From: a phage
Length of the DNA: 41,184 nucleotides
Strand: one strand, 5' to 3'
Sequence record: NC_093713.1
In this document: piece after piece, positions 12,369 through 40,784 of the stretch
Position numbering within the stretch: the stretch's first letter is position 1
Layout: each line of letters begins with the position of its first letter
The notes under the pieces: generated by a model
Database searches by the model: none
What the model was told of the DNA's origin: nothing
The model's input: only the letters and a program-made list of their open reading frames with translations
Program-made: the position numbers and the translations under genes

Positions 12369-12397
12369 TTGCACACCCCAATATAATAGGGTACTAT
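12369..12397 (+). promoter_or_regulatory. sigma70-like promoter (TTGCAC-N17-TACTAT) carrying the conserved palindromic element
   Basis: Element AATAGGGTACTATTCA at 12380..12400; same architecture on the - strand at 30306..30334 and 31115..31143. Confidence 0.55.
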
Positions 12398-12427
12398 TCA
12401 CTTACACCAACAATGGAGGGATTTAAA

Positions 12428-12619
12428 ATGTCAAGTTTACCAGTTTCCTTAATTCTGTTTGCACTTCTCGTTTATTTTGCGCCTTTCCTGGTTGCGTACT
12501 TCCGTAACCATAAAGCGAAGTTAGCGATATTCATGGCTAATCTGTTTCTTGGCTGGGCGCTGCTGCCGTGGGTCTTTATTTTAATCTGGGCGTGCAACTC
12601 GAATGTTAACGAGAAGTGA
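12428..12619 (+). CDS. superinfection immunity-like small membrane protein (Imm_superinfect-like)
   Basis: 63 aa from the ATG preceded by GGAGGG; sequence FRNHKAKLAIFMANLFLGWALLPWVFILIWA matches the family signature as recalled; two hydrophobic segments. Confidence 0.6.
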   Translation: MSSLPVSLILFALLVYFAPFLVAYFRNHKAKLAIFMANLFLGWALLPWVFILIWACNSNVNEK

Positions 12620-12657
12620 GCTAGTATAGGACAAATCCTAAACACGAGGAAGTAAGT

Positions 12658-13788
12658 ATGGCCCAGAAGAAAATAACCGACGAACAGTTGCAGGAAGAAT
12701 TGAACGCCGGGATGAAGAATATCGATATAGCTCGTAAATACGGCATCTCTGACCGCGTTATCCGTATCCGTAAAGCGAAGCTGGCTAAGAAAGGCGTAGG
12801 CCACGGGCGCGACGTTAGTCACCTTGTGCCGGACGGCTACAAGATTAAAGGAACGTCGTCGCTGGTGGACGAGTTCGGCAACACTAAGTTGCAATGGGTT
12901 AAGACAGACACCGATGCTGAACGTCAGGTCGAGTTGATGAAAGCCGTAATCGAAGGAATGAAATCAGAGATTACGCCAGTCGCCCCTGTTAAAGCAGCAC
13001 GCGCCAAACGCGACGGCAAGCTACTCAATCTTTACACGGTATCTGATTTTCACCTCGGTATGCTGGCATGGGCTGACGAGAGCGGCGACGACTGGGATAT
13101 GAAAATCGCGGAAGACCTGTTCTCTCGTTGGTTCGATGCCGCGTTTCAGAAAGCGCCGGATGCAGGAACAGGAGTTATTAATCTGCTCGGCGACCTTGCG
13201 CACTTCGATAGCCTGGACGCCGTTACACCGGCAAGTGGTCATGTTCTCGATGCGGACACGCGCTATCAGAAACTGGTCCGCTACATGATTCGTATGGTCC
13301 GCCGTGTCGTTGATATGGCCCTTGTTAAGCATAAAAATGTTCGCTTGCTTATTGTGCAAGGTAACCACGACGAAAGCGGAATGATTTGGTTAGCTGAGAT
13401 GTTCAGCACACTGTACGACAATGAGCCTCGTGTGTTCGTCGATACGTCGCCGGATGTTTACAAGATGGTGCAACACGGCAAAACGACGCTGTTCTTTACA
13501 CACGGGCATAAATGCCGGTTTGAGGTGGTCGAACCCATTATGATAGCTAAGTTCAGAAAAGCATTTGGCGAAAGCGAGTACAGTTACGCACATGTCGGGC
13601 ATCTCCACCACCAAAAGATTGTAGAAAGCCGTAACATGGTTGTTGAGCAACATCGCACCTTAGCGGCGAAAGATGCATATGCTTCCCGCGGCGGGTGGAT
13701 GTCAGGCCGTAGCGCAAACGTAATTACTTATAGCGCCGAATATGGCGAGGTCGCACGTTTAACTATTTCACCGGAGATGCTTGGATGA
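12658..13788 (+). CDS. calcineurin-like metallophosphoesterase with N-terminal HTH domain
   Basis: 376 aa; motifs SDFHLG, LGDLAHFD, QGNHDE, THGH, GHLHH; N-terminal MKNIDIARKYGISDRVIRIRKAK HTH; SD GAGGAA. Confidence 0.7.
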   Translation: MAQKKITDEQLQEELNAGMKNIDIARKYGISDRVIRIRKAKLAKKGVGHGRDVSHLVPDGYKIKGTSSLVDEFGNTKLQWVKTDTDAERQVELMKAVIEGMKSEITPVAPVKAARAKRDGKLLNLYTVSDFHLGMLAWADESGDDWDMKIAEDLFSRWFDAAFQKAPDAGTGVINLLGDLAHFDSLDAVTPASGHVLDADTRYQKLVRYMIRMVRRVVDMALVKHKNVRLLIVQGNHDESGMIWLAEMFSTLYDNEPRVFVDTSPDVYKMVQHGKTTLFFTHGHKCRFEVVEPIMIAKFRKAFGESEYSYAHVGHLHHQKIVESRNMVVEQHRTLAAKDAYASRGGWMSGRSANVITYSAEYGEVARLTISPEMLG

Positions 13789-14270
13789 AAGATATTGTGA
13801 TTTTCGATTTAGACGGGACATTGGCAGATGGTACTCATCGTTTACACCTGCTGCCGAAAGATAACTACGGCGAAACCTGGGCGTGGAAACCATTTAACAT
13901 GGCGTGCAAAGACGATGCACCCATTAAAGATAACATCGAACTGTGTAACGCCCTTAATCGTCGCTATGCCGTTATTATCTTAACAGGCCGTAGTGATGAC
14001 GCGGAAAAAGAAACCAGAATGTGGTTGCAGCGCCACCGCGTCGAATTTTATCAGTTAATCATGCGCAGCAAACACGACAACAGAAAAGACATCGTAATTA
14101 AAGAAGAGGTGTTGCGTGCTATTGGGCCGGAGAGAATCTTGTGTGCATTCGACGACTCTCCAGCGGTAATAAAGCATTTCCGCGAACTCGGCATAACCAC
14201 TCACGCAGTTACTGAATACGACTGTAACGGGAACTCTACACACTTAAAACCACATGGGAGTGATAAATAA
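13785..14270 (+). CDS. HAD-superfamily phosphatase, similar to the 3'-phosphatase domain of T4 polynucleotide kinase
   Basis: 161 aa; DxDGT motif IVIFDLDGTLA; recalled alignment to T4 Pnk phosphatase (VIILTGRSD..., KEEVL...AFDD); start overlaps upstream stop (ATGA). Confidence 0.7.
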   Translation: MKDIVIFDLDGTLADGTHRLHLLPKDNYGETWAWKPFNMACKDDAPIKDNIELCNALNRRYAVIILTGRSDDAEKETRMWLQRHRVEFYQLIMRSKHDNRKDIVIKEEVLRAIGPERILCAFDDSPAVIKHFRELGITTHAVTEYDCNGNSTHLKPHGSDK

Positions 14271-14824
14271 TGGCTAAGGTAATTATTCTTAATGGTCCTG
14301 CGGGCTGCGGGAAAGACACACTTGCTAGGGCGCTGGTAGAAATGGGCTTTGCGAAGGGTGTCGCCAGTTTCAAGAATCCGATGTTCAATATTGCTATGGC
14401 TGCGTTAGGCCAGGATGCTTACCGCGAGTTTCTCGACGGCTACGACGACCGGGCGCGGAAAGAAAAGCCAGAGGGTTTCCTTAACGGGTTGTCTCGGCGT
14501 CAGTTCATGATTGCCATTTCCGAGCAATTCATTAAACCGGTATTCGGTGATGATTATTTCGGTAAGTATCTTGCCGGAAACTTGCCCGACGGCGACGAAG
14601 TTTTTGTGGTGTCTGATGGCGGGTTCGCCAGCGAAGTAGCCCCTATCGTTGCCGCAGGGCATGATGTGAGAATCGTCCGCTTGCACAGAGACGGCCATAC
14701 GTTTGAAGGGGACAGCCGCGGTTACCTGTACGATATTGATGGTGTAAAAGATTATGACACCTACATCATACCGGGTTACGTTAAATCGAACGCTATAGGC
14801 ATTGCTTTAAGATTAGGTTTGTAA
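14270..14824 (+). CDS. deoxynucleoside monophosphate kinase-like P-loop kinase
   Basis: 184 aa; P-loop GPAGCGKDT and a C-terminal block resembling T4 gp1 dNMP kinase from memory; start overlaps upstream stop (TAATG). Confidence 0.65.
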   Translation: MAKVIILNGPAGCGKDTLARALVEMGFAKGVASFKNPMFNIAMAALGQDAYREFLDGYDDRARKEKPEGFLNGLSRRQFMIAISEQFIKPVFGDDYFGKYLAGNLPDGDEVFVVSDGGFASEVAPIVAAGHDVRIVRLHRDGHTFEGDSRGYLYDIDGVKDYDTYIIPGYVKSNAIGIALRLGL

Positions 14825-14825
14825 G

Positions 14826-14856
14826 AAAAAGGCCCCAAACGGGGCCTTAGTTTTAT
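14826..14856. terminator. bidirectional rho-independent terminator
   Basis: AAAAAGGCCCC-AAAC-GGGGCCTTAGTTTTAT between the convergent island and the major tail gene. Confidence 0.65.
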
Positions 14857-16025
14857 GCGTATGTGATACGCTGAATAACAATAGACGACTGGTACTGGTT
14901 GCCAGTAGCCTGGCCTTCAATAGACTGAGTGATTGACTCAGGTCCTCCAATCTCAGGTGTAACCGCCGTAAGTTCTGCACGTTTCAAACTGAAAGACATA
15001 GCCCCGTTTACCCCCGCCAGAATAGAGTTAATCTCCACCTGCTGCTCGTTGATAAACTTCTGAATCATCGCCATGTCGTACAGCTTACCGGAGATGGAGA
15101 AGGTGTTAGCTGCTCGGCTACGCTCCACAAAGGCCACGTTAGTGTTGCCGAGTTCGAACTGCGCGGACGCGCTGTTGTCGTTGGTGATGGTAAGGCTATC
15201 ACAACGCAACGGCGTAGAGCCATCGAACACGGAAACGTCAACCGAAGAGAACGGCTCATCACCAAAAGTAACAGATGAGAAGTTGGAACCGGTCGGCGGC
15301 GTAGTGAGAATCTCCTGACTGCGACCGATGAATGGGAAGCTGCCAGTTACCATCGCGTTAACAGCCTGTTCGATGGTAAAACCAGAAACTTCCACGCCTT
15401 TGGTTAGTGTGTACGCGTCAGTCCCGCCGCACTGGCCTTTGTACCAGGTGAGAATAGAGAACGTCTTGCACTGGCTTCCCGTTTCCAGTTTATCCCCTGT
15501 CTTAGCGGCGGTAGTTACTGTCTCTGTGGTCAGGGTATGCTGGATACCCGCCCCGGTCACTACCAGCGCCTCTACTGCAGTTACGATAAACGGTTTTGCG
15601 TTGTCACCGGTTAAGTCGGTAAACGCAATCAGGTCGCCCACTTCAACGCCGTCAGAAATAAAGCTACCTTCGGCACGGGTAAAGGTCTTGCCTGCAGGCG
15701 CGACGGTAATTGATAGCCCGGTCAGAGAACTACCGGATTGCCATGTAGAGCCTAAAGCACCCGCCAGCCAGTCGTCCTGGCTTTTCGAGCTAAGCTCAAT
15801 AGCGTATTCTCCGCTAACCTGCTTGTTACCGGTGCGGATTGACGTAGTTTCACGGCTGCCGTCCAGTTCGTTGGAGGTCAGCGTGTCGCGGGTAATGGCA
15901 GGAACGCCACCTGTGTTACGCAATGGCGACCAGACCGGGTTAGTCGGTGTTACGCCCGGGGTAGTTTCTGCCACATAGAATTGCGCAGTATTCGCGCCCT
16001 TAAAAGGAGTTGTAGCCATATTCAC
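14853..16025 (-). CDS. major tail protein (putative)
   Basis: Large ORF after head-tail joining genes and before tail chaperones; probable ATG at 16019 with SD AGAGG (track start is GTG). Confidence 0.5.
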   Translation of the reverse strand: MNMATTPFKGANTAQFYVAETTPGVTPTNPVWSPLRNTGGVPAITRDTLTSNELDGSRETTSIRTGNKQVSGEYAIELSSKSQDDWLAGALGSTWQSGSSLTGLSITVAPAGKTFTRAEGSFISDGVEVGDLIAFTDLTGDNAKPFIVTAVEALVVTGAGIQHTLTTETVTTAAKTGDKLETGSQCKTFSILTWYKGQCGGTDAYTLTKGVEVSGFTIEQAVNAMVTGSFPFIGRSQEILTTPPTGSNFSSVTFGDEPFSSVDVSVFDGSTPLRCDSLTITNDNSASAQFELGNTNVAFVERSRAANTFSISGKLYDMAMIQKFINEQQVEINSILAGVNGAMSFSLKRAELTAVTPEIGGPESITQSIEGQATGNQYQSSIVIQRITYA

Positions 16026-16438
16026 AGCCTCTTGGTGAATGCAATAAAGTTAATTGACAATGGTCGTTTGGCCCATCCGTTTTCTACAATCAGCGGCCCC
16101 AGGCTAACCTCATTCACAACGGCGCAGATGTCGTTACGTGAAAATGACTTACCTGCTTTAAACGCCGTGTTAAGTAAGTCTGCCATTTTATTGATCGGCG
16201 CGCTACCTTTCACCGATGCGTAGTTAATGTCGACCTGATAAACACCCGCGCGTTGTTCCGTGAAGAACAAATCTGCTTGCTCCGTATCCGCCAGCAACAT
16301 GTAACTTGCCAGATACGGCGTATCGGTTGACGTCGGCGCGTCGATGTTTTCAAGCGCGACCTTAATGCCGTTGGTGGTTCCGAAGGCTACCAGCGGCACA
16401 TCGAACGCTTTCGTTAAGTCCTCAAAGTAGCCCATCAT
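16022..16438 (-). CDS. head-tail joining / tail terminator-like protein (putative)
   Basis: 138 aa, position; overlaps neighbours by ATGA. Confidence 0.4.
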   Translation of the reverse strand: MMGYFEDLTKAFDVPLVAFGTTNGIKVALENIDAPTSTDTPYLASYMLLADTEQADLFFTEQRAGVYQVDINYASVKGSAPINKMADLLNTAFKAGKSFSRNDICAVVNEVSLGPLIVENGWAKRPLSINFIAFTKRL

Positions 16439-17800: not shown

Positions 17801-17802
17801 TT

Positions 17803-18315: not shown

Positions 18316-18318
18316 AAA

Positions 18319-18543: not shown

Positions 18544-19512
18544 TCACTTGTCCGCGTCGGCGATTGCCAGAGTACCGAGGGTGTGTTTGTTCTCGGCAAC
18601 AGCTTTGTCCCAGTTGGTCGCGGTGAACAGTTCTGCGTCCAGCGGAGATTTACCGCCGTTGGCGACATCCCAGCTATAGCCTTTCAGTTTCAGGCCGAAG
18701 CTGTAATCCGCCTGCCAGGTGGTCTGGATGCGGGTGTTACCGTTGCTGGTATCAATGTTGCTGATAATATCAGAAGCATTATCAACGATGATGCCGTTGG
18801 CAACTACGGACAGGACCTTAGTCTTGTTCGGAGTACCGGCCTCGTACAGCGCAGGAATGTCAGAGATTACGTAACGCTTGCCGAGAACATCAACAACCAT
18901 AACGTTACCAGCAACGAACAGCTGGTTTGCGTTAGTCAGCGCTTTATCTACCAGCGTGTGATAAGCAGCACCAGTCATGATGTCGGTAATCAGCAGCTGA
19001 GACTGGTCGCCGAATTTAGCGTGGCTGTTGTTCAGCACGTTCAGGGACAGACCCACTGTTTCAGATACGTCGTTAACCAGCGCGGCCTGACCAGATACCG
19101 CCGCAACAGCTGCGCCAACAGCGGTGTTGAGCTGGTCTGCTAACAGCGCATCAGAGAAGCCTTCGGAAATAGCACGAATCGCGCTTGCCGGGTCTTCGTT
19201 AAGCCAGGTCATTTGCGCAGGCTCGAACAGTACCGGTCCGAAGCCGCCAGCGACTTTAACGCCCACATGCTCGCCCTGAGTCAGCGCGGTAGCTGCCTGA
19301 GACTCGATAGCGGCGTAACGGTCAACGCGGCGTTTAGCGGAGGCAATCTGGTTAAAGAAAGACTCACGGGAGAAATCACCGCGCCATGAGGCAGTAGACA
19401 GTACAATTGCGCCACCGGAGGCCGCGTTAAACTGGTCAGTTTTCTGACCAAGCAGTTCGATAGTGGTACCGACGATATCGTCGTTATAAACCTTCATATC
19501 TGACAGAGCCAT
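18544..19512 (-). CDS. major capsid protein
   Basis: 322 aa, follows the scaffold gene and is followed by a strong terminator. Confidence 0.75.
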   Translation of the reverse strand: MALSDMKVYNDDIVGTTIELLGQKTDQFNAASGGAIVLSTASWRGDFSRESFFNQIASAKRRVDRYAAIESQAATALTQGEHVGVKVAGGFGPVLFEPAQMTWLNEDPASAIRAISEGFSDALLADQLNTAVGAAVAAVSGQAALVNDVSETVGLSLNVLNNSHAKFGDQSQLLITDIMTGAAYHTLVDKALTNANQLFVAGNVMVVDVLGKRYVISDIPALYEAGTPNKTKVLSVVANGIIVDNASDIISNIDTSNGNTRIQTTWQADYSFGLKLKGYSWDVANGGKSPLDAELFTATNWDKAVAENKHTLGTLAIADADK

Positions 19513-20488: not shown

Positions 20489-20799
20489 GTGTAATTACCT
20501 CTGATTTCGTCTTGCCTTCGTTATCAGCGGCTGCGGCCTTCGACTCATCCTGCTGCTGCCGTTGTGTTTTCTTAGCTAACTCAGCCTCTGTTCGTGTTGT
20601 TATCAGCGGCTGCGGCCTTCGACTCATCCTGCTGCTGCCGTTGTGTTTTCTTAGCTAACTCAGCCTGTGCTTTCTGCTGTTGCTGCGAAACGAGATTCGC
20701 CCGGCCTCCGTTCCAGCCGCTGCTATACTGGTAGATGCCGTGTGCGTAAGCCAGGATGATGAAACATGCTCCCGCTACGACAGTTGCTTTAAGATTCAT
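20334..20799 (-). pseudogene. i-spanin (Rz-like) split into two frames by a 79 bp tandem duplication
   Basis: N-terminal fragment (20581..20799) has a transmembrane segment; C-terminal fragment (20334..20627) is in a frame offset by one; AELAKKTQRQQQDESKAAAADN is encoded by both repeat copies. Confidence 0.6.
20520..20677. repeat. tandem direct repeat, period 79 bp, two copies (68 bp identical core)
   Basis: GTTATCAGCGGCTGCGGCCTTCGACTCATCCTGCTGCTGCCGTTGTGTTTTCTTAGCTAACTCAGCCT at 20520 and 20599. Confidence 0.85.
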
Positions 20800-21049
20800 G
20801 TTTCCCCTTTCTCGATAAGTAAAGCCCCGCCTTAAAGCGGGGCGCTAGTCCTTATCATTTAAACATAGAAACGGCGTAATCTCAGTAAACCAGTTACTTT
20901 TTACACAAGCAATATAGTATGGCCCTTCCGAACGCGTCAGCGCAACTACACTCGGACTTAACGTCCGGCTCCGTTACCTGCCGCGCCGCGGTCGCTTGTT
21001 CATACTTCACAAGCTCAGGTGGAGCTTAGCACATTTTTGGTGAAAAGTC

Positions 21050-21065
21050 AACTATTCGAATAGTT
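21050..21065. promoter_or_regulatory. perfect 16 bp palindrome AACTATTCGAATAGTT in the intergenic region upstream of the spanin-scaffold-capsid block
   Basis: Contains the same GAATAG/CTATTC half-sites as the promoter element but everted; adjacent to a TTGACT hexamer on the - strand. Confidence 0.4.
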
Positions 21066-21113
21066 TACTCCAACATTTACAATTGAGTGGAATAACTGGA
21101 ATAATCACAGGCA

Positions 21114-21602: not shown

Positions 21603-22678
21603 TAATCCCCTTTCAGATAATCAGCAACACGTTTATCGAGTTCCGCCATCTGCTTAAGCGTGAGCGGATTCCCGAAACCATCTACAGATATTACGCGAAA
21701 CTCTTCCGGCGATATACCGCTGTTACGGAAAATCTTACCTCGCACCGGGCCGAGCGCCTGGTCCTGAAACCACGCCGGTTGTTGTTTAAGGAACTCGTAG
21801 TAAGTGGTGTCTGCGCTTACCTGAGTGCCACCTTCCGCGCCTTTAGCCGCGCGTTTTGCGCCTTTATCGAGGAAGTCGAACTCGGAACTGATTACCGGAG
21901 CCGTGCACGACCGGCAGTTCGGATGGGCTGGGGGCATCGGCCCCTTACCAATTTCCCACGTCATCCCGTCTCTGACCCTGCAAATCGTACTGGTGCGGCT
22001 GTCAAGCGTTGACACCCACTCGTACTTCTCGATGATGTCGTCGTTCTGGCGGTACGTCTCGTTACGGGCTTCGTTGGACACGTGAGACAGCGCGGTGCGG
22101 ATGACGGTAGCGGCGTTACGCTCAGAGATGTCAGCCAGCCCACCGGCGCCTACTACATTCTTAACAATCTGCCGTGTTGTTTGACCTTGTACAAAGCCCA
22201 TCTTAACGCCGGTTACAAGACGTGCTACTTCCGTTTCACCCCAACCTGACATCAGTTTAGTGAAATCAACTGGCTTGCCACTCAATGATAATGGCTGAAA
22301 CTCAGCAGCGGCCCACACCTGTTCGGCGGTGGGCGTAACAAATTCCGCATCTACGTTGGCGGTCAGGGTCTTTACGTTCCACTCAGCTTCATACACCGCC
22401 AGTTCCTTGAGGTCTTCTGCCAGCTTTGTTTGCCAGTCACCAGTAAGTCCTGTCAGTGCTTCTTCAAGGTCACGTAACAGTTTATTCAGTCGCGCAGTGC
22501 TGCGACCGTCGTCGCCGAATAGCAGCACCTGCCGTTTGATTTCGTCCCGCATCTCCTTAATGAACGGCGCGAGGTCTTTCACCTCACCGGATGCGGTGCG
22601 TTGCAGCCATATCTGGTGGCTGATTAGTGATGTAAGTAAGCTCATAGATAAACCCTGTGGCGCTAAAGTTAATAGCAT
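21602..22678 (-). CDS. head morphogenesis / minor capsid protein (SPP1 gp7 / Mu F-like)
   Basis: 358 aa directly downstream of portal; alternative ATG at 22645. Confidence 0.55.
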   Translation of the reverse strand: MLLTLAPQGLSMSLLTSLISHQIWLQRTASGEVKDLAPFIKEMRDEIKRQVLLFGDDGRSTARLNKLLRDLEEALTGLTGDWQTKLAEDLKELAVYEAEWNVKTLTANVDAEFVTPTAEQVWAAAEFQPLSLSGKPVDFTKLMSGWGETEVARLVTGVKMGFVQGQTTRQIVKNVVGAGGLADISERNAATVIRTALSHVSNEARNETYRQNDDIIEKYEWVSTLDSRTSTICRVRDGMTWEIGKGPMPPAHPNCRSCTAPVISSEFDFLDKGAKRAAKGAEGGTQVSADTTYYEFLKQQPAWFQDQALGPVRGKIFRNSGISPEEFRVISVDGFGNPLTLKQMAELDKRVADYLKGD

Positions 22679-22684
22679 ACTATA

Positions 22685-27804: not shown

Positions 27805-27833
27805 AATATAATAGGGTCTAAGGTAATAGTCAA
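27805..27833 (-). promoter_or_regulatory. sigma70-like promoter (TTGACT-N17-TATATT) for the small-gene operon
   Basis: Hexamers with 17 nt spacing just downstream of two terminators. Confidence 0.5.
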
Positions 27834-27855
27834 CTAGTCATTACAGAAAACAGAT

Positions 27856-29523: not shown

Positions 29524-29744
29524 TATTTCTCCTGTTTACCAAGTCGCTTAGGTGAGCAGATAGCGCGTACCTCCGAATCGTTGGGCTTGTCGCCCTGAAA
29601 CAGGAAGTGCGCGTTCTCTGCGGCGCGTGCCGCTGACTGGCACGCCTCCATCGAGTAAAACGTTTCTGATGCCGCCAGATGCATCTGACCCGTGGACAGC
29701 ACCCAGATAAATAAGATGCTGGTCATCAGAAGTATTCCCCACAC
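29523..29744 (-). CDS. small protein with N-terminal hydrophobic segment (secreted or membrane)
   Basis: ORF track; MTSILFIWVLSTG hydrophobic N-terminus, two Cys. Confidence 0.35.
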   Translation of the reverse strand: MWGILLMTSILFIWVLSTGQMHLAASETFYSMEACQSAARAAENAHFLFQGDKPNDSEVRAICSPKRLGKQEK

Positions 29745-30274
29745 GTTTTACATACTTTCGTACCGAACGGCGCGGAGCCATCTGTTATTACATAATAGAA
29801 ACTGTGTTTGCACTCCTGTGTACAGGCTGTTGCCCCATACTCAAGTCCGTCCCACTCACGCTTGCCGCATTCGCAGCAAAACAGGCTACCGGGCACGTTG
29901 TCCTTGTTGCCTTCGGCAATAAACAATCCTGGAGCGATAATCCAATTGTGGTCACATTCCTGCGTATCTTCTTTTCGGCAACCAGATTGCTCCGAACCGT
30001 ACGCACCTTTGCGGATAAGTTTGTATGCCTCCACGTCACCAGTAGCCTCGGCCAATGCCAGACGCAACTCCTTAACTTGCCCTGTCAGGTGCGATATGTG
30101 CTCAGATTTCTTAATGTTGTCTTCCCGCAACTCCTTAATCTGCACCTCATGCGCCAGGTCTTCGCTCACCCCGTTATAGACGCCGTTGTAGTCCCCGTCG
30201 CAGATGAACGGGTAGAGCATATCTTCGTACTCGTCCTGCAACTCACCTAAAGTTACTTCGCTATAATCTTTCAT
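29726..30274 (-). CDS. Cys-rich protein (182 aa), possible zinc-binding
   Basis: Several CxxC / C-x-C pairs in the C-terminal half; directly downstream of the conserved-element promoter. Confidence 0.45.
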   Translation of the reverse strand: MKDYSEVTLGELQDEYEDMLYPFICDGDYNGVYNGVSEDLAHEVQIKELREDNIKKSEHISHLTGQVKELRLALAEATGDVEAYKLIRKGAYGSEQSGCRKEDTQECDHNWIIAPGLFIAEGNKDNVPGSLFCCECGKREWDGLEYGATACTQECKHSFYYVITDGSAPFGTKVCKTCGEYF

Positions 30275-30305
30275 ATTCTGTCTCCCCTCTCGTTTGTGTA
30301 AATGA

Positions 30306-30334
30306 ATAGTAGCCTATTCTATCTTAGTGTGCAA
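30306..30334 (-). promoter_or_regulatory. sigma70-like promoter (TTGCAC-N17-TACTAT) with conserved palindromic element
   Basis: Element TGAATAGTAGCCTATTCTAT at 30303..30322. Confidence 0.5.
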
Positions 30335-30341
30335 GTAAATT

Positions 30342-30515
30342 TTATTGGTGTGTTATAGAGTCGATGAACGCCAGTAACTCCCTTTCCGCTTCTGCTTCTC
30401 TTTCTTCAAGCGACCAGGTAGCGGATTCATCTGTTGCCGTTGCTAAATCGGTTTTTACGTCAATCATCGTGTCGATTAACGTTATTAGTCGTTCAGCCTG
30501 TTCTTTAGTAATCAT
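30342..30515 (-). CDS. small acidic protein (57 aa), hypothetical
   Basis: Hand-translated MITKEQAERLITLIDTMIDVK...; SD AGGAGA; preferred over the + strand track ORF 30364..30576. Confidence 0.4.
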   Translation of the reverse strand: MITKEQAERLITLIDTMIDVKTDLATATDESATWSLEEREAEAERELLAFIDSITHQ

Positions 30516-30649
30516 TGTTGCATCTCCTGCAATAGTCGCTTCGATTGTTGCGTTTGATGAAAGTGTCGCCTTTTGACGACACTAAGTTAAAGTTGTACGC
30601 TGCTACACAGCAGCGTAAGTCACTCAATAAAATCCCAAACTATTGAACA

Positions 30650-30844
30650 TCACACTTCTGGCGGCTCGGGTAACGGCATCCAGTGTGTTGGTTCACATAC
30701 CCCCTCAACACCATTCATGTAAAAGAATTGAAATAGCCCTTTACCTTTGTGAAACCCCACCATCTGCTCTTTTGTATCTGAACAATAAACCAAAACATCT
30801 TCTTCGTTTGGCATCCGCTCACTACACTTAATCCACTCACCCAT
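30650..30844 (-). CDS. small protein (64 aa), hypothetical
   Basis: ORF track; MGEWIKCSERMPNEEDVLVYC... Confidence 0.45.
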   Translation of the reverse strand: MGEWIKCSERMPNEEDVLVYCSDTKEQMVGFHKGKGLFQFFYMNGVEGVCEPTHWMPLPEPPEV

Positions 30845-31080: not shown

Positions 31081-31114
31081 AACCCTCACTCCTCTGTCTC
31101 GTTTTGATAAGTGA

Positions 31115-31143
31115 ATAGTATCCTATTATGTTGGGGTGTGCAA
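31115..31143 (-). promoter_or_regulatory. sigma70-like leftward early promoter (TTGCAC-N17-TACTAT) with conserved palindromic element
   Basis: Near-identical to the 12369..12397 promoter; element TGAATAGTATCCTATTATG at 31112..31130. Confidence 0.55.
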
Positions 31144-31516
31144 GAGATTAGTTACGTTGCCGTTGTGATTCTTCAGGTAGGGTTGTGCCTTTATTCTTAT
31201 TACTTGGTAACTAAAGGGCAGGCCCTAAGCCTGCCCAATAATCGTTACATTTTTACGGTTGCGAATCTACGGCACTTTAAGAAAATCAGATACTTAAGAT
31301 ATATTCCGCCGATGGGAATAGAGCTTGCCCAGGGCAACCGGAGATACTTAGGAAGGAAAGTTACGATAATTCGAATGTTCAGTAAACTGCCGCCTAACAC
31401 TTCGCGTTGGGCGCTCGTTTTCGGCGGGTTTTACAAGGTGAACAAGAATCAAAGTAACTAAGATACAGAAGCACCTTAAACGAAGATTTCCATAATGTCA
31501 ATAGGTGCGATTATGT

Positions 31517-31545
31517 TTGATTTCCCATTATTCGCAATGTATACT
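31517..31545 (+). promoter_or_regulatory. sigma70-like rightward promoter (TTGATT-N17-TATACT)
   Basis: Hexamers ~30 nt upstream of the HTH regulator gene. Confidence 0.5.
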
Positions 31546-31577
31546 TGGTTTCGTTAACTGATAATGGGGGTTTGAGA

Positions 31578-31748
31578 ATGACACAGAATGAAGTAGCCGA
31601 GCGTATTGGGGTTACCCGTCGCACGCTGAATAACTGGTTAAAGAGTGGGAAGTTCCCGGATTGTTGTATCCGTATTATGGGCCGCCGGCAGCCGGGTACT
31701 TTCGACCCGGAGAAAGTGGAAGCGTGGATTAAGGAGAATGTAAAATGA
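31578..31748 (+). CDS. small HTH DNA-binding regulator (AlpA / excisionase-like)
   Basis: 56 aa from the ATG preceded by GGGGGT; VAERIGVTRRTLNNWLKSGKFP HTH; the track ORF begins at an upstream TTG. Confidence 0.55.
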   Translation: MTQNEVAERIGVTRRTLNNWLKSGKFPDCCIRIMGRRQPGTFDPEKVEAWIKENVK

Positions 31749-34304: not shown

Positions 34305-34323
34305 AAGGGGCGTTAAGCCCCTT
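34305..34323. terminator. bidirectional terminator hairpin between primase and repressor genes
   Basis: AAGGGGC-GTTAA-GCCCCTT. Confidence 0.5.
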
Positions 34324-34528
34324 CACCGAACGCCAGCCACTTGGCATCTACTTGCAGCACTTCCGCCAGTTTAAACAGCGTCGCTGGGCGGACGTCCTTA
34401 GTTACACCGAGTGCCAGCTGGTTAATCGCGCCCTGGGAAACACCGGCCAGGACAGCCAGACGGCGTTGGGAAATGCCGAGTTCTTTACGGCGCTGTTCTA
34501 CACGGATGCCTAGTTCAGATGGTTGCAT
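34313..34528 (-). CDS. XRE-family HTH transcriptional repressor (Cro/CI-type)
   Basis: 71 aa; QRRLAVLAGVSQGAINQLALG HTH; SD AAGGAG; transcribed divergently from the operator-containing rightward promoter. Confidence 0.75.
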   Translation of the reverse strand: MQPSELGIRVEQRRKELGISQRRLAVLAGVSQGAINQLALGVTKDVRPATLFKLAEVLQVDAKWLAFGEGA

Positions 34529-34555: not shown

Positions 34556-34622
34556 GTGAATAGTACCATATTAATTATTTTAGAAAAGCCCATTGACAAC
34601 GTGAATAGTTCGCTATTATAGT
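34556..34622. promoter_or_regulatory. divergent promoter region with two copies of the conserved palindromic element
   Basis: Rightward TTGACA-N18-TATAGT overlapping GTGAATAGTTCGCTATTATAGTT; second, degenerate copy TGTGAATAGTACCATATTAAT toward the repressor gene, whose own -35 is poor. Confidence 0.55.
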
Positions 34623-35215: not shown

Positions 35216-35488
35216 ATGATTTACCAACTATACCGCGCCGTTGACCGGCGGGATAACACAGAGGCGCTATGGTTATTGCGTGCGCCGTCCGGTGCACACC
35301 AGATGGGAGATATGGCGTACTTAGGCAAAGTGCCACGGCCTAAAGACATAGGCCGCCACGTGTCACATATTAAGCGCACGACTTTCGCCAAACCGGACTT
35401 TTACGTCTTCGAGTCGATGTATGGCTGGGCTATGCACTGCGACCATAAGACACGACATTTAATTGACCAGTGGGAGAGCAGGGTATGA
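35216..35488 (+). CDS. hypothetical protein (90 aa)
   Basis: ORF track; SD GAGGGT. Confidence 0.45.
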   Translation: MIYQLYRAVDRRDNTEALWLLRAPSGAHQMGDMAYLGKVPRPKDIGRHVSHIKRTTFAKPDFYVFESMYGWAMHCDHKTRHLIDQWESRV

Positions 35489-36735
35489 TTTTAAAGGAAC
35501 GCGGCGGCAATAACGATGTGCACGCCTTACTGTCGCCGTCTGGTGCTAAAAAGTGGCTGGCGTGCAGTGCATCACTGGCCTGTGAAAAAGATATTCCTAA
35601 CACGTCAGGTAAAGCCGCCGTATTAGGGACGGCTATGCACACCATAGCTGAGATGCACTTAAACCAGTACATCAAAGGCACTGCGTTGCCGTTAGAGCGC
35701 GAAGTAGGTGCTTACGTGCTGGATGAGGGTAAAGGCCAGATTAAGGCGCTAATCAGCCCGATGAAAGGCGCGGTACTGATTACGGCTGACATGATTGAGC
35801 AGGTGCGCAAGTACACCGACCACTGCAAAGCTGTTATCGATGTAGCGACTTACGCCAAACTCGAGATGCGTGTCAATCTTACTGAGGTATTGCATCCAGG
35901 CTACGAAGGCGTTGAGACATTCGGAACCGCCGACATTGTTGCCGTTCAGGAACTGGCGAACACCGACGAGCACATGCTCATTATTGGCGACCTTAAAACT
36001 GGACGGCATCGTGTTGAAGCGAAAGAAAACAAGCAGCTTATGCTTTACGCTCTCGGAGTTTATCGCCGACTCAAGAGACGTTATAACATCACAGTAGTGC
36101 GCCTGGTCATCTTCCAGCCGTACGCGGGGGGTGCGTCAGAGTGGGACATCTCGGTCGAAGGTCTGGAACTGTTCGCTAAGTTCGCACAGAAACGGGCACT
36201 GTTAGCGCTTGATGCTTATTTCCGTGGAAAGAAGAACCTGAAAGCGTCGGACTTTAAACCGTCGGTCGATGGTTGCCAGTGGTGCCGGTTCTCTGAACAG
36301 TGTGCCGCGCGTACAAAGACGGTTAATTCTGTACTGGCGGAAGAACTTGAAGACGACTTTGTGCTGGAACTGACGACGGAGCAACTCGTAGTTGAGTATG
36401 AGAAGTTGCCGCTGTTGCGCCAGCACATCGACAAGGTTGAGAAAGCGATGTCCGCCGCATTGCATTCCGGTAAGAAAGTGCCAGGGTACAAACTGGTAGA
36501 AGGCCGCCCGGGTAATCGTGCGTGGAAAGATGCCGATGCGATTGAAGTGTCACACGGCGACATTCTCAAAAAAGAGGTATTGATGTCCCCTACGGAGGCA
36601 GCAAAAGTTCTTTCTGCGGATGAGATGGCAGCGCTTGAGCCGTTTATTACCCGTAAGCCAGGCGCACCATGTGTCGCAACGGCAGACGACAAACGTCCTG
36701 AGTGGAATCAGGTTAGTGAAGAAGATTTGGAATAA
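35485..36735 (+). CDS. PD-(D/E)XK nuclease with C-terminal Cys cluster (DUF2800 / Cas4-like)
   Basis: GDLKTG and QLMLYALG motifs; C-terminal CQWCRFSEQC; ATG at 35485 with SD GGAGAG (track starts at a GTG at 35470). Confidence 0.65.
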   Translation: MILKERGGNNDVHALLSPSGAKKWLACSASLACEKDIPNTSGKAAVLGTAMHTIAEMHLNQYIKGTALPLEREVGAYVLDEGKGQIKALISPMKGAVLITADMIEQVRKYTDHCKAVIDVATYAKLEMRVNLTEVLHPGYEGVETFGTADIVAVQELANTDEHMLIIGDLKTGRHRVEAKENKQLMLYALGVYRRLKRRYNITVVRLVIFQPYAGGASEWDISVEGLELFAKFAQKRALLALDAYFRGKKNLKASDFKPSVDGCQWCRFSEQCAARTKTVNSVLAEELEDDFVLELTTEQLVVEYEKLPLLRQHIDKVEKAMSAALHSGKKVPGYKLVEGRPGNRAWKDADAIEVSHGDILKKEVLMSPTEAAKVLSADEMAALEPFITRKPGAPCVATADDKRPEWNQVSEEDLE

Positions 36736-36739
36736 AGTG

Positions 36740-36768
36740 TTGACACCTGAATAGTTAGCTATTATAGT
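36740..36768 (+). promoter_or_regulatory. sigma70-like promoter (TTGACA-N17-TATAGT) with conserved palindromic element
   Basis: CTGAATAGTTAGCTATTATAGTT in the spacer and -10. Confidence 0.55.
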
Positions 36769-36821
36769 TCTAATCACTGGCCGGGCAGTTCCCGGAGTAA
36801 ACTGAAAAGCGAGAAATCACG

Positions 36822-37448
36822 ATGGGTATTAAACTGAATCTGCGTAAAGTAAACACTGCATGGGTTAACGTATTCGAACGCGAAAAAGACCGTGAAAACG
36901 ATGATGGCTCAATCACTAAAGGCCAGTACAGCGCGACTATCATCCTGCCGTCTGACCACGCACAAATCGACGCGCTCTACGACACCGTTTACGCTGTGGT
37001 TGAAGAAGCGTTGGGCGCAGCTGCCGCTGAGAAGTGGATGAAGTCCAACTACGGCGAAGGTAAGCACATGGATAAATGTGCGATTAAAGACATTGCCGAG
37101 CGCGACAATCCGTTTGAAGACTTCCCGGAAGGCTTCTACTTCAAGGCGAAGGCACAGAAACAGCCACTGATTGTAACCTCTAAAAAAGGCGAGACTCAGG
37201 TAGAACAGGACTTCAATGTAGACGGCGAACAGATTGAAGGTGAACAGGTTTACAGCGGCTGCGTCGCTAACGTAAGCGTTGAAATCTGGTTCAGTCAGAA
37301 ATATAAAGTCCTCGGCGTTAACCTGCTGGCGATTAAATACATTGGCGAAGGCAAAGCGTTTGGCGGTTCTAAAGTCGCTGCAAGCGTCAACGACCTGGAA
37401 GACGACGAAGAAGATGAAGCACCGCGCCGCGAGCGTCGTCGCCGCTAA
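36822..37448 (+). CDS. DUF2815-like protein (putative single-stranded DNA-binding protein)
   Basis: 208 aa with acidic C-terminal tail DLEDDEEDEAPRRERRRR; sits in the DUF2800 - DUF2815 - polymerase arrangement. Confidence 0.55.
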   Translation: MGIKLNLRKVNTAWVNVFEREKDRENDDGSITKGQYSATIILPSDHAQIDALYDTVYAVVEEALGAAAAEKWMKSNYGEGKHMDKCAIKDIAERDNPFEDFPEGFYFKAKAQKQPLIVTSKKGETQVEQDFNVDGEQIEGEQVYSGCVANVSVEIWFSQKYKVLGVNLLAIKYIGEGKAFGGSKVAASVNDLEDDEEDEAPRRERRRR

Positions 37449-37467
37449 TATCTGAATCAATTTAACT

Positions 37468-37493
37468 AAGGCCCTTCATTGGGCCCTTTTTAC
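37468..37493 (+). terminator. rho-independent terminator
   Basis: AAGGCCC-TTCATT-GGGCC followed by TTTTTA. Confidence 0.55.
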
Positions 37494-37503
37494 CGGAGTC
37501 AGA

Positions 37504-37977
37504 ATGGAACATATAAAAGATTTTCTAAGCTACGACCGAGAAACCGGGGTATTTACGTGGATACAGCCTACTTACCGTCGAGGGCGACCGGGAGACATTG
37601 CGGGGTGCATCAATAGTAGTGGATACTGGCGAATTCCGTACATGGGTCGATATTACATGGCGCACAGGCTAGCGTGGTTTTTCGAGTACGGTGAATGGCC
37701 CGAAGGCCCTCTTGACCATATAAACCGTGACAGGTTAGACAATAGGATTTCTAACCTAAGGAAAGCAACAACCGCCGATAATGTGCGAAACGCTAAAAAT
37801 AAGGGAGCTAGAACAGGAGTTAAGGGGGTAGTTAAAAACGGCAACCGATTTTACGGGCGTGTGCATTTTAACTACAAAAGTTATAACGCTGGTAGCTACG
37901 GAACTCTTGAAGAAGCAGAAAGCGCTGTAAAGAAATTAAGAGAAAAACTGCACAAGGAATTTTATTGCCATGACTAG
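37504..37977 (+). CDS. HNH homing endonuclease (with AP2-like DNA-binding region)
   Basis: 157 aa; MAHRLAWFFEYGEWPEGPLDHINRDRLDNRISNL HNH motif; free-standing between SSB-like and polymerase genes. Confidence 0.7.
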   Translation: MEHIKDFLSYDRETGVFTWIQPTYRRGRPGDIAGCINSSGYWRIPYMGRYYMAHRLAWFFEYGEWPEGPLDHINRDRLDNRISNLRKATTADNVRNAKNKGARTGVKGVVKNGNRFYGRVHFNYKSYNAGSYGTLEEAESAVKKLREKLHKEFYCHD

Positions 37978-40147
37978 TTTATTATACCTGGATACCGAGA
38001 CGTTCTCTGAAGCGGACTTAAAGAAAGTCGGGTCGTATGCGTACGCGGAGCACCCAACGACAGAGGTTATAATTTGTACATATGCCGTTGATGACGGTCC
38101 TGTAGAAGTATGGGATTGCACTTCCGAACCAGTAATGCCGATAAGCCTCCGTGTTGCGCTCCGTAATGTTATGCGCGGACGTATGAAAATCGTGGGCCAT
38201 AACTTTTTAATGTTCGATCGTCTTATCATGAAGCATTGCTGGGACTTTGATATTCCGGTAAGCAACACCATTGATACGATGATTTGGGCGTTTCGTCACG
38301 CGCTGCCGGGTTCTCTTGATGCGCTGTGTGAAGTGCTTGGCGTGTCCGCAGACAACGCGAAAGACAAACGAGGCAAAGCGCTTATTCAGCGTTTTTCTAA
38401 ACCGACACCGAAGAACTACAAAATCCGCCGCTACACTGCTGAAACGCACCCGGATGAGTGGGCGCTGTTCATCAAGTACGCCGTTAGCGACATCACCGCG
38501 ATGCGTGAAGTGTTCCATAAGCTGCCACGTTGGGGCAACTCCGAGTTCGAAGACCGTGTGCTGGAACTGGACCAGTTAATCAACGACCGCGGGTTTAAGG
38601 TTGACGTTGCACTGGCGGAAGCCGCGATTGAAGCCGTGGAGAAACACAAAGCGCAGTTACAGGAAGAAGCCCAACGTAAATACGGCGGCTCGCTTACCGG
38701 AAAGGACTTCCTTCCTATTCTGCGTGAACTCGCACCGGCGCACCGTATTCACAACGCACAGAAGTCAACGCTTAACGACCTGCTTGCTGACGACGATTTA
38801 CCGGACGACGCCAGCGCGATTATCGAGATGCGACTCGGGGCCGCGTCTACCGCGTCAACGAAATATAACCCGCTGTTGTTGGGCCGCTCTTCTGACGACC
38901 GCCGTCGCGGTTGCATACAATATGGTGGAGCTAAGCGTACTTTACGGTTTGCAGGTAAAGGCTTCCAGCCGCAGAACCTCGCACGCGGGTACTATCACGA
39001 TGATGAACTGGATAAAGGAATTTCTGCGTTACTTAAGGGCCGCGCTCATCGTCGATTTGACGTAGCCAAGCTAACGGCATCTACCGTTCGTAGCTGCATC
39101 ATACCGGAAACTGGACATAAGTTTGTCGTTGCCGATTACTCTAACGTCGAAGGCCGCGGGCTTGCGTGGCTGGCGGGGGAAGAAACCGCGCTAGATACGT
39201 TCCGTGCCGGACTGGATATTTACTGCGTAACCGCGGGTAAGATGTTCGGTATGGAGCCGGATTACATTAAGAAAGAACGTAAAGACTTACGCCAGATTGG
39301 TAAGGCATGCGAACTGGGACTTGGCTACGCGGGTGGTGTCGGCGCATTCGTACAGTTCGCCAAGAACCTCGGCCTTGACCTTGTTGATATGGCAAAAACA
39401 ATGGACGGGACTTTCCCCGACCACATCTGGGCCGCTACCGCGCGTGGGTATGAGTGGGCGCGTATTCAGGAAGCCAAGAGACCGCCACGTCCCGGTGAAA
39501 AAGATGACCGACCATCATATATTCTGGACAAGAAAGTGTGGCGTACATGCGACGCCATCAAGCGTATGTGGCGGGAGTCTCACCCTGAAACAGTAGCTTT
39601 CTGGCGGGATATTGAAGACGCAGCTATGGCAGCTATCCGCAATCCAGGTAAAGAGTTCACTGCAGGGCCTCGCGGCGTTAAGTTTTCGCGTAACGTAGAG
39701 ACAGATAACAACGGCAACAAAGTCGCCGGTTGGTGGTTGCGCATGACGTTGCCGTCGGGCCGCGTTATGTCTTATCCAGGTGTCGGGTTAAGCGTGTCGA
39801 AAGAGACAGACGAAGACGGGAAGGTGTCCACTAACGTCCGCATCAAGTACCAGGGCGAAAACCAGTTAACACGGCAGTGGGGCTTCCAGTACACATATTC
39901 CGGTAAACTCGTGGAAAACTGCACTCAGGCGCTGTGCCGTGATTTGTTGGCTAATGCGCTGCTTAACGTAGAAGCAAACGGCTATCCGATTGTGCTTCAC
40001 GTACACGATGAGATTATCTGCGAGACACCAGATTTACCAGAATACAATGTTGCAGAGCTTGAGCGGTTGATGTGCGAATTACCGGAATGGGCTGAGGGGT
40101 TCCCTCTTGTAGCAGAAGGTGCGGAGATGAAGCGTTATGCCAAGTAA
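37970..40147 (+). CDS. DNA polymerase, family A, with 3'-5' exonuclease domain
   Basis: 725 aa; exo motif LYLDTETF; polymerase motif C LHVHDEII. Confidence 0.85.
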   Translation: MTSLLYLDTETFSEADLKKVGSYAYAEHPTTEVIICTYAVDDGPVEVWDCTSEPVMPISLRVALRNVMRGRMKIVGHNFLMFDRLIMKHCWDFDIPVSNTIDTMIWAFRHALPGSLDALCEVLGVSADNAKDKRGKALIQRFSKPTPKNYKIRRYTAETHPDEWALFIKYAVSDITAMREVFHKLPRWGNSEFEDRVLELDQLINDRGFKVDVALAEAAIEAVEKHKAQLQEEAQRKYGGSLTGKDFLPILRELAPAHRIHNAQKSTLNDLLADDDLPDDASAIIEMRLGAASTASTKYNPLLLGRSSDDRRRGCIQYGGAKRTLRFAGKGFQPQNLARGYYHDDELDKGISALLKGRAHRRFDVAKLTASTVRSCIIPETGHKFVVADYSNVEGRGLAWLAGEETALDTFRAGLDIYCVTAGKMFGMEPDYIKKERKDLRQIGKACELGLGYAGGVGAFVQFAKNLGLDLVDMAKTMDGTFPDHIWAATARGYEWARIQEAKRPPRPGEKDDRPSYILDKKVWRTCDAIKRMWRESHPETVAFWRDIEDAAMAAIRNPGKEFTAGPRGVKFSRNVETDNNGNKVAGWWLRMTLPSGRVMSYPGVGLSVSKETDEDGKVSTNVRIKYQGENQLTRQWGFQYTYSGKLVENCTQALCRDLLANALLNVEANGYPIVLHVHDEIICETPDLPEYNVAELERLMCELPEWAEGFPLVAEGAEMKRYAK

Positions 40148-40268
40148 ACTGATTATCGCGGTACTGGCGGGATTTGCTGCCGGTGTCTACTGTCACGAGG
40201 GTCAATACAGCATGATGGTCGCCATATTGGGCATGTTCATCGCAATTTATCTGTGGGTGCTGGAATGA
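40137..40268 (+). CDS. small hydrophobic peptide (43 aa)
   Basis: Hand-translated MPSKLIIAVLAGFAAGVYCHEGQYSMMVAILGMFIAIYLWVLE; overlaps polymerase stop; not in ORF track. Confidence 0.35.
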   Translation: MPSKLIIAVLAGFAAGVYCHEGQYSMMVAILGMFIAIYLWVLE

Positions 40269-40354
40269 AAATCTACTGGTTTTATGAAGAAGACTGTCGA
40301 ATCTGTCCGCGCTGCGGTATTGAACATACGAAACGGGAGGGGTGCGTACTATGA
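40265..40354 (+). CDS. small Cys-rich peptide (29 aa), zinc-ribbon-like
   Basis: Hand-translated MKIYWFYEEDCRICPRCGIEHTKREGCVL; ATGA-coupled. Confidence 0.3.
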   Translation: MKIYWFYEEDCRICPRCGIEHTKREGCVL

Positions 40355-40503
40355 CAATGTTTGTATTTCGGACGATAGTAACCATGCTCGCACTGTTACT
40401 CGGGGCGGGAATAGCCGCGATGTTCTGTTACGGCCTGTTCTTTAAGTTTGCCGGTGTTGCCGTTCTAGGCGGGGCGTTTATAACTTGGGTTCTGCGCTCA
40501 TGA
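40351..40503 (+). CDS. small membrane peptide (50 aa)
   Basis: Hand-translated MTMFVFRTIVTMLALLLGAGIAAMFCYGLFFKFAGVAVLGGAFITWVLRS; ATGA-coupled to VRR-NUC. Confidence 0.35.
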   Translation: MTMFVFRTIVTMLALLLGAGIAAMFCYGLFFKFAGVAVLGGAFITWVLRS

Positions 40504-40784
40504 CCCCGGAAGGCAAAATACAGAAATACGCAAAAGAGCGATTCGAGGCCATCGGCGGCCTCGTTCGTAAGCTCTCCTACGAAGGACGTTCGGGTGCCCC
40601 TGACCTGCTGGTAATTCTCCCCGGCGGCATAGTCTGGTTCGTCGAGGTGAAGAAAGACGAAAACACGAAGCCAGACCCGCACCAGATACGTGAGCACGAG
40701 CGGATGCGTAAACGTGGTGCGAATGTTTTTGTCGTTGGTTCGTTTAAACAGGTTGACGACCTAATAGCGAGCTATTATAGTTAG
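40500..40784 (+). CDS. VRR-NUC domain nuclease
   Basis: 94 aa from ATG at 40500; PDLLVILPGGIVWFVEVKKDENTKPDPHQ fits the VRR-NUC pattern. Confidence 0.65.
   Translation: MTPEGKIQKYAKERFEAIGGLVRKLSYEGRSGAPDLLVILPGGIVWFVEVKKDENTKPDPHQIREHERMRKRGANVFVVGSFKQVDDLIASYYS
40753..40781 (+). promoter_or_regulatory. sigma70-like promoter (TTGACG-N17-TATAGT) with conserved palindromic element, inside the 3' end of the VRR-NUC gene
   Basis: CTAATAGCGAGCTATTATAGTT. Confidence 0.5.

Follow-up and report, generated by a model that had tools for sequence, protein, structure and literature searches.

The 41,184-nucleotide stretch of phage DNA deposited as NC_093713.1, here called the window, carries a short palindrome that recurs between positions 12380 and 40781, each time within a predicted promoter. 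This raises the question of what the element is for, and which protein, if any, recognizes it. Our analysis suggests that the palindrome is probably an operator, set in promoters of the host sigma-70 type, at which a dimer of a small phage protein resembling phage 434 Cro would block RNA polymerase. The proposed repressor is a 71-residue protein of the XRE (HTH_3) family, encoded on the minus strand at 34313..34528 and hereafter called XRE. The window represents a virulent, K1-capsule-specific E. coli phage of the genus Kagunavirus (subfamily Guernseyvirinae) and of the K1ind1 type. Across its replication region it is 92-98% identical to Escherichia phage K1ind1, whose record runs in the opposite orientation, and its structural region is about 94% identical to phages UTI89UKE1 and fTaEco. 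Its gene content includes an endosialidase tailspike, a family A DNA polymerase, a helicase-primase, a DUF2800/PD-(D/E)XK exonuclease and a Gp2.5-like SSB. No integrase or lysogeny module was found among the open reading frames (ORFs) of the window as mapped onto the annotations of K1ind1, Jerseyvirus T102 and Pantoea phage AH01, and papers on related phages report no lysogeny genes.

The dyad, its positions and its conservation, as well as the family and fold of XRE, can be read from the sequence. A preliminary description had placed seven copies of a palindrome with a spacer of three or four nucleotides at 12380..12400, 30303..30322, 31112..31130, 34556..34575, 34602..34622, 36748..36768 and 40761..40781. 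All seven copies are there and the palindrome holds, but the spacer is four nucleotides long in every copy; the variable spacing had arisen because a flanking T was counted. The symmetric core is a 14-bp sequence, AATAG-N4-CTATT, with ends extended by (G/T) and (A/C). Exact cores occur six times in the window (at 12385, 30305, 31114, 34604, 36750 and 40763), against 0.02 expected from Markov simulations and 0.034 from composition, and no other dyad made of a 5-mer, a gap of 0-10 nucleotides and the reverse complement of the 5-mer is repeated as often. The seventh copy, at 34559-34572, has a single half-site mismatch, its right half being ATATT. With up to three mismatches allowed, the pattern of the preliminary description, GAATAGTNNNCTATTATA, matched 12 times, against 0.70 expected, a count reached in none of 100 shuffled sequences. 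Scanning the window with a weight matrix, as the preliminary description had proposed, gave scores of 20-24 bits for the seven sites; the matrix was built from these sites themselves, and the top scores in simulations had a mean of 11.9 and a maximum of 18.6 bits.

The copies are embedded in promoters (all promoter assignments in this work are predictions from sequence) with the geometry first described for them: three are co-directional with promoters of the form TTGAC(A/G)-N17/18-TATAGT, and in three others, of the form TTGCAC-N17-TACTAT, the element is read from the other strand. The three promoters of the first class are on the plus strand. Copy 5 (AATAG-TTCG-CTATT, 34604..34617, 23.9 bits) covers the spacer and the first -10 base of TTGACA(34593-34598)-N18-TATAGT(34617-34622), which is predicted to drive the operon of ORF172, ORF90 and the exonuclease. 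Copy 6 (AATAG-TTAG-CTATT, 36750..36763, 23.6 bits) lies in TTGACA(36740-36745)-N17-TATAGT(36763-36768), the predicted promoter of the genes for the Gp2.5-like SSB, an HNH endonuclease and the DNA polymerase, and copy 7 (TAATAG-CGAG-CTATTA, 40763..40776, 20.7 bits) lies in TTGACG(40753-40758)-N17-TATAGT(40776-40781), predicted to serve the gene at 40815..41006 and genes past the end of the window. In the second class the element overlies the -10. Copy 1 (AATAG-GGTA-CTATT, 12385..12398, 24.2 bits) covers that of the plus-strand promoter TTGCAC(12369-12374)-N17-TACTAT(12392-12397), which would drive an island of imm, exonuclease, PNK and ATPase genes at about 12428-14824. This island is set against the tail genes and ends at a bidirectional terminator (14829-14848), and sites orthologous to copy 1 are found at 19355 in T102 and at 21793 in AH01. 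Copy 2 (AATAG-TAGC-CTATT, 30305..30318, 21.8 bits) covers the -10 of the minus-strand promoter TTGCAC(30334-30329)-N17-TACTAT(30311-30306), predicted to drive the gene at 30274..29726 together with downstream small genes and lysis genes. Copy 3 (AATAG-TATC-CTATT, 31114..31127, 23.8 bits) is placed likewise over the -10 of the minus-strand TTGCAC(31143-31138)-N17-TACTAT(31120-31115), predicted to drive small ORFs from about 31080 downwards. The remaining copy, the weakened copy 4 (AATAG-TACC-ATATT, 34559..34572), scores lowest of the seven (20.2 bits) and covers an extended -10, TGgTACTAT (minus strand, 34568-34560), in a predicted promoter that immediately precedes the XRE gene and whose -35 is poor.

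Relative to the -10, the dyad thus occurs in two registers 6 bp apart. In the TTGAC(A/G)/TATAGT class it is centred near -18.5 and reaches from about -25 to about -12; in the TTGCAC/TACTAT class it is centred near -12.5 and reaches from about -19 to about -6, and the ATAGTA of the left half has TACTAT as its complement. Since two orientations and two registers of the dyad are in use, it appears to be a separate protein site and not a part of what polymerase recognizes. The promoters also differ in quality, the two TTGACA/TATAGT promoters matching the consensus at 11 of 12 positions and the TTGCAC/TACTAT promoters at 7 of 12. A role of the dyad at the RNA level was rejected because in both classes it lies upstream of the predicted transcript start (-25 to -6), and because a hairpin of 5 bp with a loop of 4 nt is too weak to matter. 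Moreover, a scan of the whole window against Rfam at gathering thresholds gave zero matches; the non-coding gaps hold no known RNA families and the dyad is outside any known RNA element. A likeness to ArgR boxes (TGAAT...ATTCA) was also rejected, as the spacing is N8 here, unlike that of ARG boxes, which is N4.

Conservation was assessed in 46 Kagunavirus and Jerseyvirus loci from IMG/VR, found by alignment of XRE, together with the complete genomes of K1ind1 and T102; six copies could be followed, each in 11-40 distinct orthologous sequences. Mean column entropy was 0.017 bits over the ten half-site positions, against 0.418 bits over the four central positions and 0.232 bits over the 8-bp flanks, into which parts of the -35 and -10 fall. 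Invariant half-sites around a free centre are the pattern expected of an operator for a dimeric helix-turn-helix protein. In T102, TAATAG-N4-CTATTA is found, exactly or with one mismatch, at seven promoters that correspond one-to-one to the seven of the window and belong to orthologous units (the tail-cluster island, two early leftward units, the divergent pair, upstream of SSB and downstream of the polymerase). K1ind1 lacks, at 29573-30658, the SSB and HNH endonuclease module found at 36748-37977 of the window, and also lacks a promoter and operator of the 36748 type; with six copies in K1ind1 and seven in the window, operator number varies with gene content. When IMG/VR was scanned for the exact pattern with GAATAGTNNNCTATTAT, the matches listed were mostly single and probably due to chance, and the contigs with multiple copies were of 41-45 kb and Kagunavirus-like.

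Beyond these two genera the half-sites change. AH01 has five exact copies of AATAC-N4-GTATT, against 0.033 expected, and no dyad of the Kagunavirus type. Other than by a cognate protein whose specificity shifted along with its sites, it is difficult to account for a symmetric change from G to C in the two halves of five sites. At corresponding promoter positions, phiEap-2 carries AATAC-N4-CTATT, Hafnia phage TS33 carries AATAG-N4-GTAAT and SaI_NFG_5577 carries ATTAG-N4-GTATT. The constraint on the half-sites, the orientations and registers, the layout in T102 and the clade variants provide comparative support for the proposal, made in the preliminary description, of a shared operator embedded in several promoters. 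A code relating recognition-helix residues to the bases of the half-site variants was considered and rejected, as the independent clades are too few and the comparison of Kagunavirus with Jerseyvirus is a counter-example (see below).

Which protein would bind the operator? Two candidates had been put forward, XRE and a 56-residue, excisionase-like HTH_17 protein encoded on the plus strand at 31578..31748. XRE matches Pfam HTH_3 over residues 11-65 (E 1.1e-12; 48.2 bits against a gathering cut-off of 23) and is assigned in PHROGs to phrog_4, 'transcriptional repressor'; GenBank records name its gene 'Cro' or 'transcriptional repressor'. Its best sequence match in the PDB is 434 Cro, also of 71 residues (E 1.7e-7, residues 6-68 aligned with 4-64), followed by the N-terminal domain of the 434 repressor and by P22 C2. 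A single-sequence AlphaFold2 model (pLDDT 84.2) has five helices (residues 5-17, 21-28, 32-39, 48-57 and 62-66) and superimposes on the five-helix fold of 434 Cro; the top Foldseek matches in the PDB were 2cro, 1pra and 3cro (TM 0.72-0.79), 2cro and 3cro at about 40% identity. With conserved half-sites and a free centre in a 14-bp dyad, XRE would most likely bind as a dimer.

In nine of nine genomes compared, an XRE homologue lies at the corresponding locus, next to the gene for the helicase-primase and with the exonuclease-polymerase operon running divergently from it. Copies 4 and 5 (34559-34572 and 34604-34617) both fall between the XRE gene and the divergent operon, in a gap of 125 bp and with their centres 45 bp apart, so that operators overlap both the predicted promoter of XRE itself and the predicted divergent promoter, as in the 434 Cro subtype. 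Two operator copies beside the XRE gene, in the divergent promoter region, are found alike in the window, T102 and AH01. The divergent neighbour is an acidic protein of 172 residues that has no Pfam match and belongs to phrog_3127, of unknown function. In the Kagunavirus, Jerseyvirus and AH01 genomes alike, one half-site of the operator at the XRE promoter is degenerate, and the mismatch in copy 4 does not vary across 34 distinct Kagunavirus sequences. A weak copy conserved at this promoter suggests that weak autoregulation has been selected.

From these elements we propose the following scheme, in which binding by XRE, repression rather than activation, and timing are inferred. All seven promoters would be read by the sigma-70 RNA polymerase of the host. 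XRE, made from its own extended -10 promoter, would accumulate and bind the dyad as a dimer, with one helix-turn-helix on each half-site. The strong operators, over the -10 or the spacer of the non-structural promoters, would be filled and these promoters shut down by occlusion, as a repressor bound to dyads centred at -12.5 or -18.5 would block the binding of polymerase. Finally, XRE would limit its own synthesis; because its own operator is the conserved weaker copy, self-repression would set in last. The regulon would take in nearly every non-structural transcription unit: the operons for replication and recombination (34602, 36748 and 40761), the leftward small-gene and lysis units (30303 and 31112), the immunity, nuclease and PNK island inside the tail cluster (12380), and the gene of the repressor itself (34556).

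Several observations weigh against this scheme. The main one is that between Kagunavirus and Jerseyvirus XRE is just 52% identical and HTH_17 84% identical, yet the two genera have one operator consensus; the predicted recognition helix of XRE is SQGAINQ in the former and SQSLITH in the latter. Taken alone, this pattern would favour HTH_17 as the binder. Moreover, the half-sites in phiEap-2, TS33 and SaI_NFG_5577 are consistently unequal, which a plain homodimer does not predict, and no convincing genome-wide dyad was found in the distant XRE-carrying clades (VLCpiS11a-like, L067-like, L075-like and Tsm2), apart from a single AATAC-TATA-GTATC at the XRE promoter of VLCpiS11a and two exact AATAG-N4-CTATT in Tsm2. 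In the literature searched, no Guernseyvirinae phage has evidence from binding, footprinting, transcription start mapping or mutants. A coarse RNA-seq study of Kagunavirus K1B4 distinguished 4 early, 42 middle and 11 late genes (PMC12645636). There imm and pol are 'late', and the genes expected to be under operator control are split over the temporal classes, although the K1B4 gene numbers have no secure mapping onto the operator-bearing units (PMC12645636). That the dyad is the operator of another protein, be it HTH_17, some other small phage protein or a host factor, nevertheless seems to us rather unlikely. HTH_17 has a predicted promoter (TTGATT-17-TATACT, 31517-31545) that lacks the dyad, as expected for an upstream regulator, and it may be the sole annotated 'early' gene of K1B4 ('Helix-turn-helix domain'), an assignment made from Pfam descriptions and gene order. 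However, its homologues were found only in the Kagunavirus and Jerseyvirus groups (K1ind1, T102); tblastn detected none in AH01, TS33, phiEap-2, SaI_NFG_5577, VLCpiS11a or Tsm2 (best phmmer E 0.19), and the first four of these six clades have clear dyads at corresponding promoter positions. A conserved host factor would leave the clade-specific half-sites unexplained, and two operator copies flank the XRE gene whereas none flank that of HTH_17. XRE is the only helix-turn-helix protein common to all dyad-bearing clades. Because of this distribution, the confinement of HTH_17 to two genera and the likeness of XRE to 434 Cro, we favour XRE of the two candidates.

The remaining alternatives do away with a dedicated binder, with the host polymerase or with repression. 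It seems quite improbable that nothing in particular binds the dyad and that paralogous cassettes of promoter and leader were spread by duplication or recombination, perhaps as recombination points between modules, in which case AT-rich hexamers resembling a -10 on the two strands (TATAAT/TATAGT and TACTAT) would have produced the palindrome incidentally. The promoters are indeed alike beyond the dyad. A 48-nt cassette of promoter and leader is repeated at 30288-30335 and 31097-31144 with 77% identity, and the leaders of most operator-bearing promoters have a ACCAAACGAGAGGAG-type ribosome-binding region in common, suggesting that promoter, operator and leader move as one module; the right half of the dyad also overlaps a TATTATAGT -10 region conserved in many clades. 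However, the promoter-distal half-site, which lies in the spacer where sigma-70 makes few base-specific contacts, varies no more than the -10 does, unlike the bases between the halves, the internal spacing of 4 bp stays constant while the register shifts by 6 bp and the orientation flips, and AH01 altered both half-sites symmetrically at five sites. We see scarcely any likelihood that the element is a phage-specific promoter for a phage-encoded RNA polymerase or sigma-like factor, as its label in the fBC-Eco01 paper implies. PHIRE finds it as the dominant repeated intergenic motif: in fBC-Eco01 the consensus tgAATAGTa-ccTATTat-T has seven copies (PP1-PP7, e.g. TGAATAGTACCATATTAATT and TGAATAGTATCCTATTATGT, matching copies of the window), labelled 'Phage RNAP promoter' in Table S2 (PMC9825357), and Golestan has seven PHIRE promoters of the same family (e.g. 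TAATAGCGAACTATTCACAT and TAATATGGTACTATTCACAT; PMC7203180). Thus, the repeat is already known as a sequence, there as a promoter motif that one paper credits to a phage RNA polymerase. That attribution is untenable because no such polymerase is encoded: none was found by a Pfam scan of the ten largest ORFs of the window or in the annotation of K1ind1, and the large ORFs are all assigned to other functions or tail proteins. Furthermore, promoters of such polymerases are asymmetric and keep a fixed orientation and distance, unlike a symmetric dyad used in both orientations and two registers, and every copy is embedded in a sigma-70-type -35/-10. The dyad symmetry, the sigma-70 embedding, the clade variants and the link to a Cro-like gene go unmentioned in the literature searched. 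A role of XRE chiefly as an activator, or in replication origin function or superinfection exclusion, likewise has little chance of being correct. The TTGCAC/TACTAT promoters are poor and might need help, and in an infected cell the entering genomes of related phages would be silenced as well by a repressor of all early promoters. On the other hand, the dyad centres overlap the footprint of polymerase, whereas the known activators of the family bind upstream of the -35, the TTGACA/TATAGT promoters, being close to consensus, need no activator, and superinfection exclusion is compatible with repression and not a separate mechanism.

Taking XRE to be the repressor, the operator reading defines a probable regulon of seven to ten promoters, predicts the small gene that controls it, and corrects the published label of 'phage RNA polymerase promoters'. 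It also offers a cheap experimental handle, one 71-residue protein and a 14-bp site, in phages that are among the commonest isolates for therapy and biocontrol of E. coli and Salmonella (Kagunavirus and Jerseyvirus), and the clade-specific half-sites could supply matched repressor-operator pairs for engineering. More tentatively, and with the balance somewhat on the side of doubt, the Guernseyvirinae, a large subfamily of enterobacterial siphophages that are strictly virulent, may run their whole non-structural programme through an 'orphan' Cro without cI, acting at single operators in every early and middle promoter in two registers, with a specificity that drifts together with the operators from genus to genus (AATAG, AATAC, ATTAG and mixed). 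If so, the subfamily would offer a natural series of repressors matched to their operators, and would serve as a simple model of how part of a lysogeny switch is reused as a timer of the lytic cycle or as a block on superinfecting relatives.

The next-best scores of the weight matrix fell in intergenic gaps of the late region, at 22671-22684 (17.7 bits), 21043-21056 (15.9 bits) and 27825-27838 (13.1 bits, within the chance range). These three candidates are all conserved in K1ind1; we treat them as suggestive, because the simulated top scores averaged 11.9 and reached 18.6 bits. The first, TATAG-TATG-CTATT on the minus strand, lies just past a terminator (22704-22689) at the start of a head-morphogenesis gene, and an equivalent site is listed as a PHIRE promoter in Golestan (PMC7203180). 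The second, AATAG-TTGA-CTTTT on the minus strand, overlaps a -35, TTGACT, that belongs to a promoter of the same strand; this promoter has an extended -10 (TGcTAAGCT) and is listed for fBC-Eco01 as host promoter HP1 (PMC9825357). The third, ACTAG-TTGA-CTATT on the minus strand, overlaps the -35 of TTGACT-17-TATATT upstream of a cluster of small genes and terminase. As one-mismatch dyads over a TTGACT -35, the sites at 21043 and 27825 are weak candidates for partial control of these late-region promoters. An additional half-site abuts the dyad at 21043, so that the minus strand of 21046-21069 reads CTATTC-GAATAG-TTGA-CTTTT, three consecutive half-sites. Behind the same promoter (TTGACT-17-TGcTAAGCT, window 21049-20824) come about 180 nt with no ORF and no Rfam match, ending at a strong terminator hairpin (20843-20824) before the spanin start at 20799; possible roles for this stretch are those of a leader, an attenuator or a small RNA.

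Some features of the leaders and module boundaries were noted in passing. At copy 1, the superinfection-immunity ORF imm probably starts at the ATG at 12428, which is preceded by GGAGGG and gives the 63 residues annotated in K1ind1; the first ATG of the frame, at 12413, is merely about 8 nt from the predicted transcript start. Between the promoter at 36748 and the SSB gene (36822..37448), the leader contains a hairpin, CCGGG-CAGTT-CCCGG (36781-36795). The AATCACTGGCCGGGCAGTTCCCGGAGTAAAC around it is nearly invariant in 24 distinct Kagunavirus and Jerseyvirus sequences and recognizable in phiEap-2 and SaI_NFG_5577, and the hairpin could be a translational operator for SSB. The promoter at 31112 and the HTH_17 gene are separated by a non-coding gap of 447 bp (31131-31577), which contains GC-rich hairpins on both strands (31216-31236 and 31391-31413) and the short direct repeats AGATACTTAAGA and AGATACTTAGGA, 54 bp apart, and a replication origin and a packaging site are possibilities for it. 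The terminator stem AAGGCCCC-N4-GGGGCCTT is reused at two module boundaries (2302-2321 and 14829-14848), the latter reading as a terminator on either strand. The window has four copies of GCCCC-N4-GGGGC, which is found again in every related genome. Serratia phage eta, with its 'unstable lysogens', was set aside, as only its structural module is in common and this has no bearing on the operator.

How does the proposed system compare with known ones? Mechanistically it would be classical, and the gain lies in annotation and in the understanding of this phage group rather than in a new concept. Operators of the MerR type have a spacer of 19-20 bp and a coiled-coil, effector-responsive regulator, whereas the spacers here are of 17-18 bp; HTH_17, moreover, has only 56 residues, and its match to MerR_1 (20.9 bits) is below the cut-off (21.6). 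Among the fold matches of XRE are structures (1y7y, 2b5a) of the controller proteins of restriction-modification (RM) systems, for example C.AhdI and C.BclI. These small dimers have the XRE fold and recognize dyads within the promoter of their own gene; they act at one promoter with paired operators as a switch between activation and repression, unlike the many promoters and single operators found here, at a locus with no RM context. The closest counterpart in detail is 434 Cro with OR1-3 and OL1-3. The 434 operators are 14-bp ACAA-N6-TTGT dyads bound by dimers. Both proteins have 71 residues, and both sites are 14-bp dyads with conserved outer bases and a free centre, placed over the -10 of promoters that include the protein's own. 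The half-site is AATAG here and ACAA there, and the recognition helix SQGAINQ here and KQQSIQL there. The present phage group is virulent. There is no cI partner, as the divergent neighbour of XRE is not of the cI type and the annotation of K1ind1 includes no CI-like gene. Nor is there an integrase or a tripartite OR/OL array, the divergent region having two copies and all other loci a single one. For these reasons the XRE locus is not a lambdoid immunity region. Instead of two clusters of three operators, the window has seven or more single operators spread genome-wide in two registers. With the lambdoid Cro proteins, which turn down PR and PL late, XRE would have in common the role of a small repressor that feeds back by occlusion on its own and other early promoters; the difference is that no decision between lysis and lysogeny is involved here, and that the proposed regulon reaches further, to promoters internal to operons and to the island inside the tail cluster.

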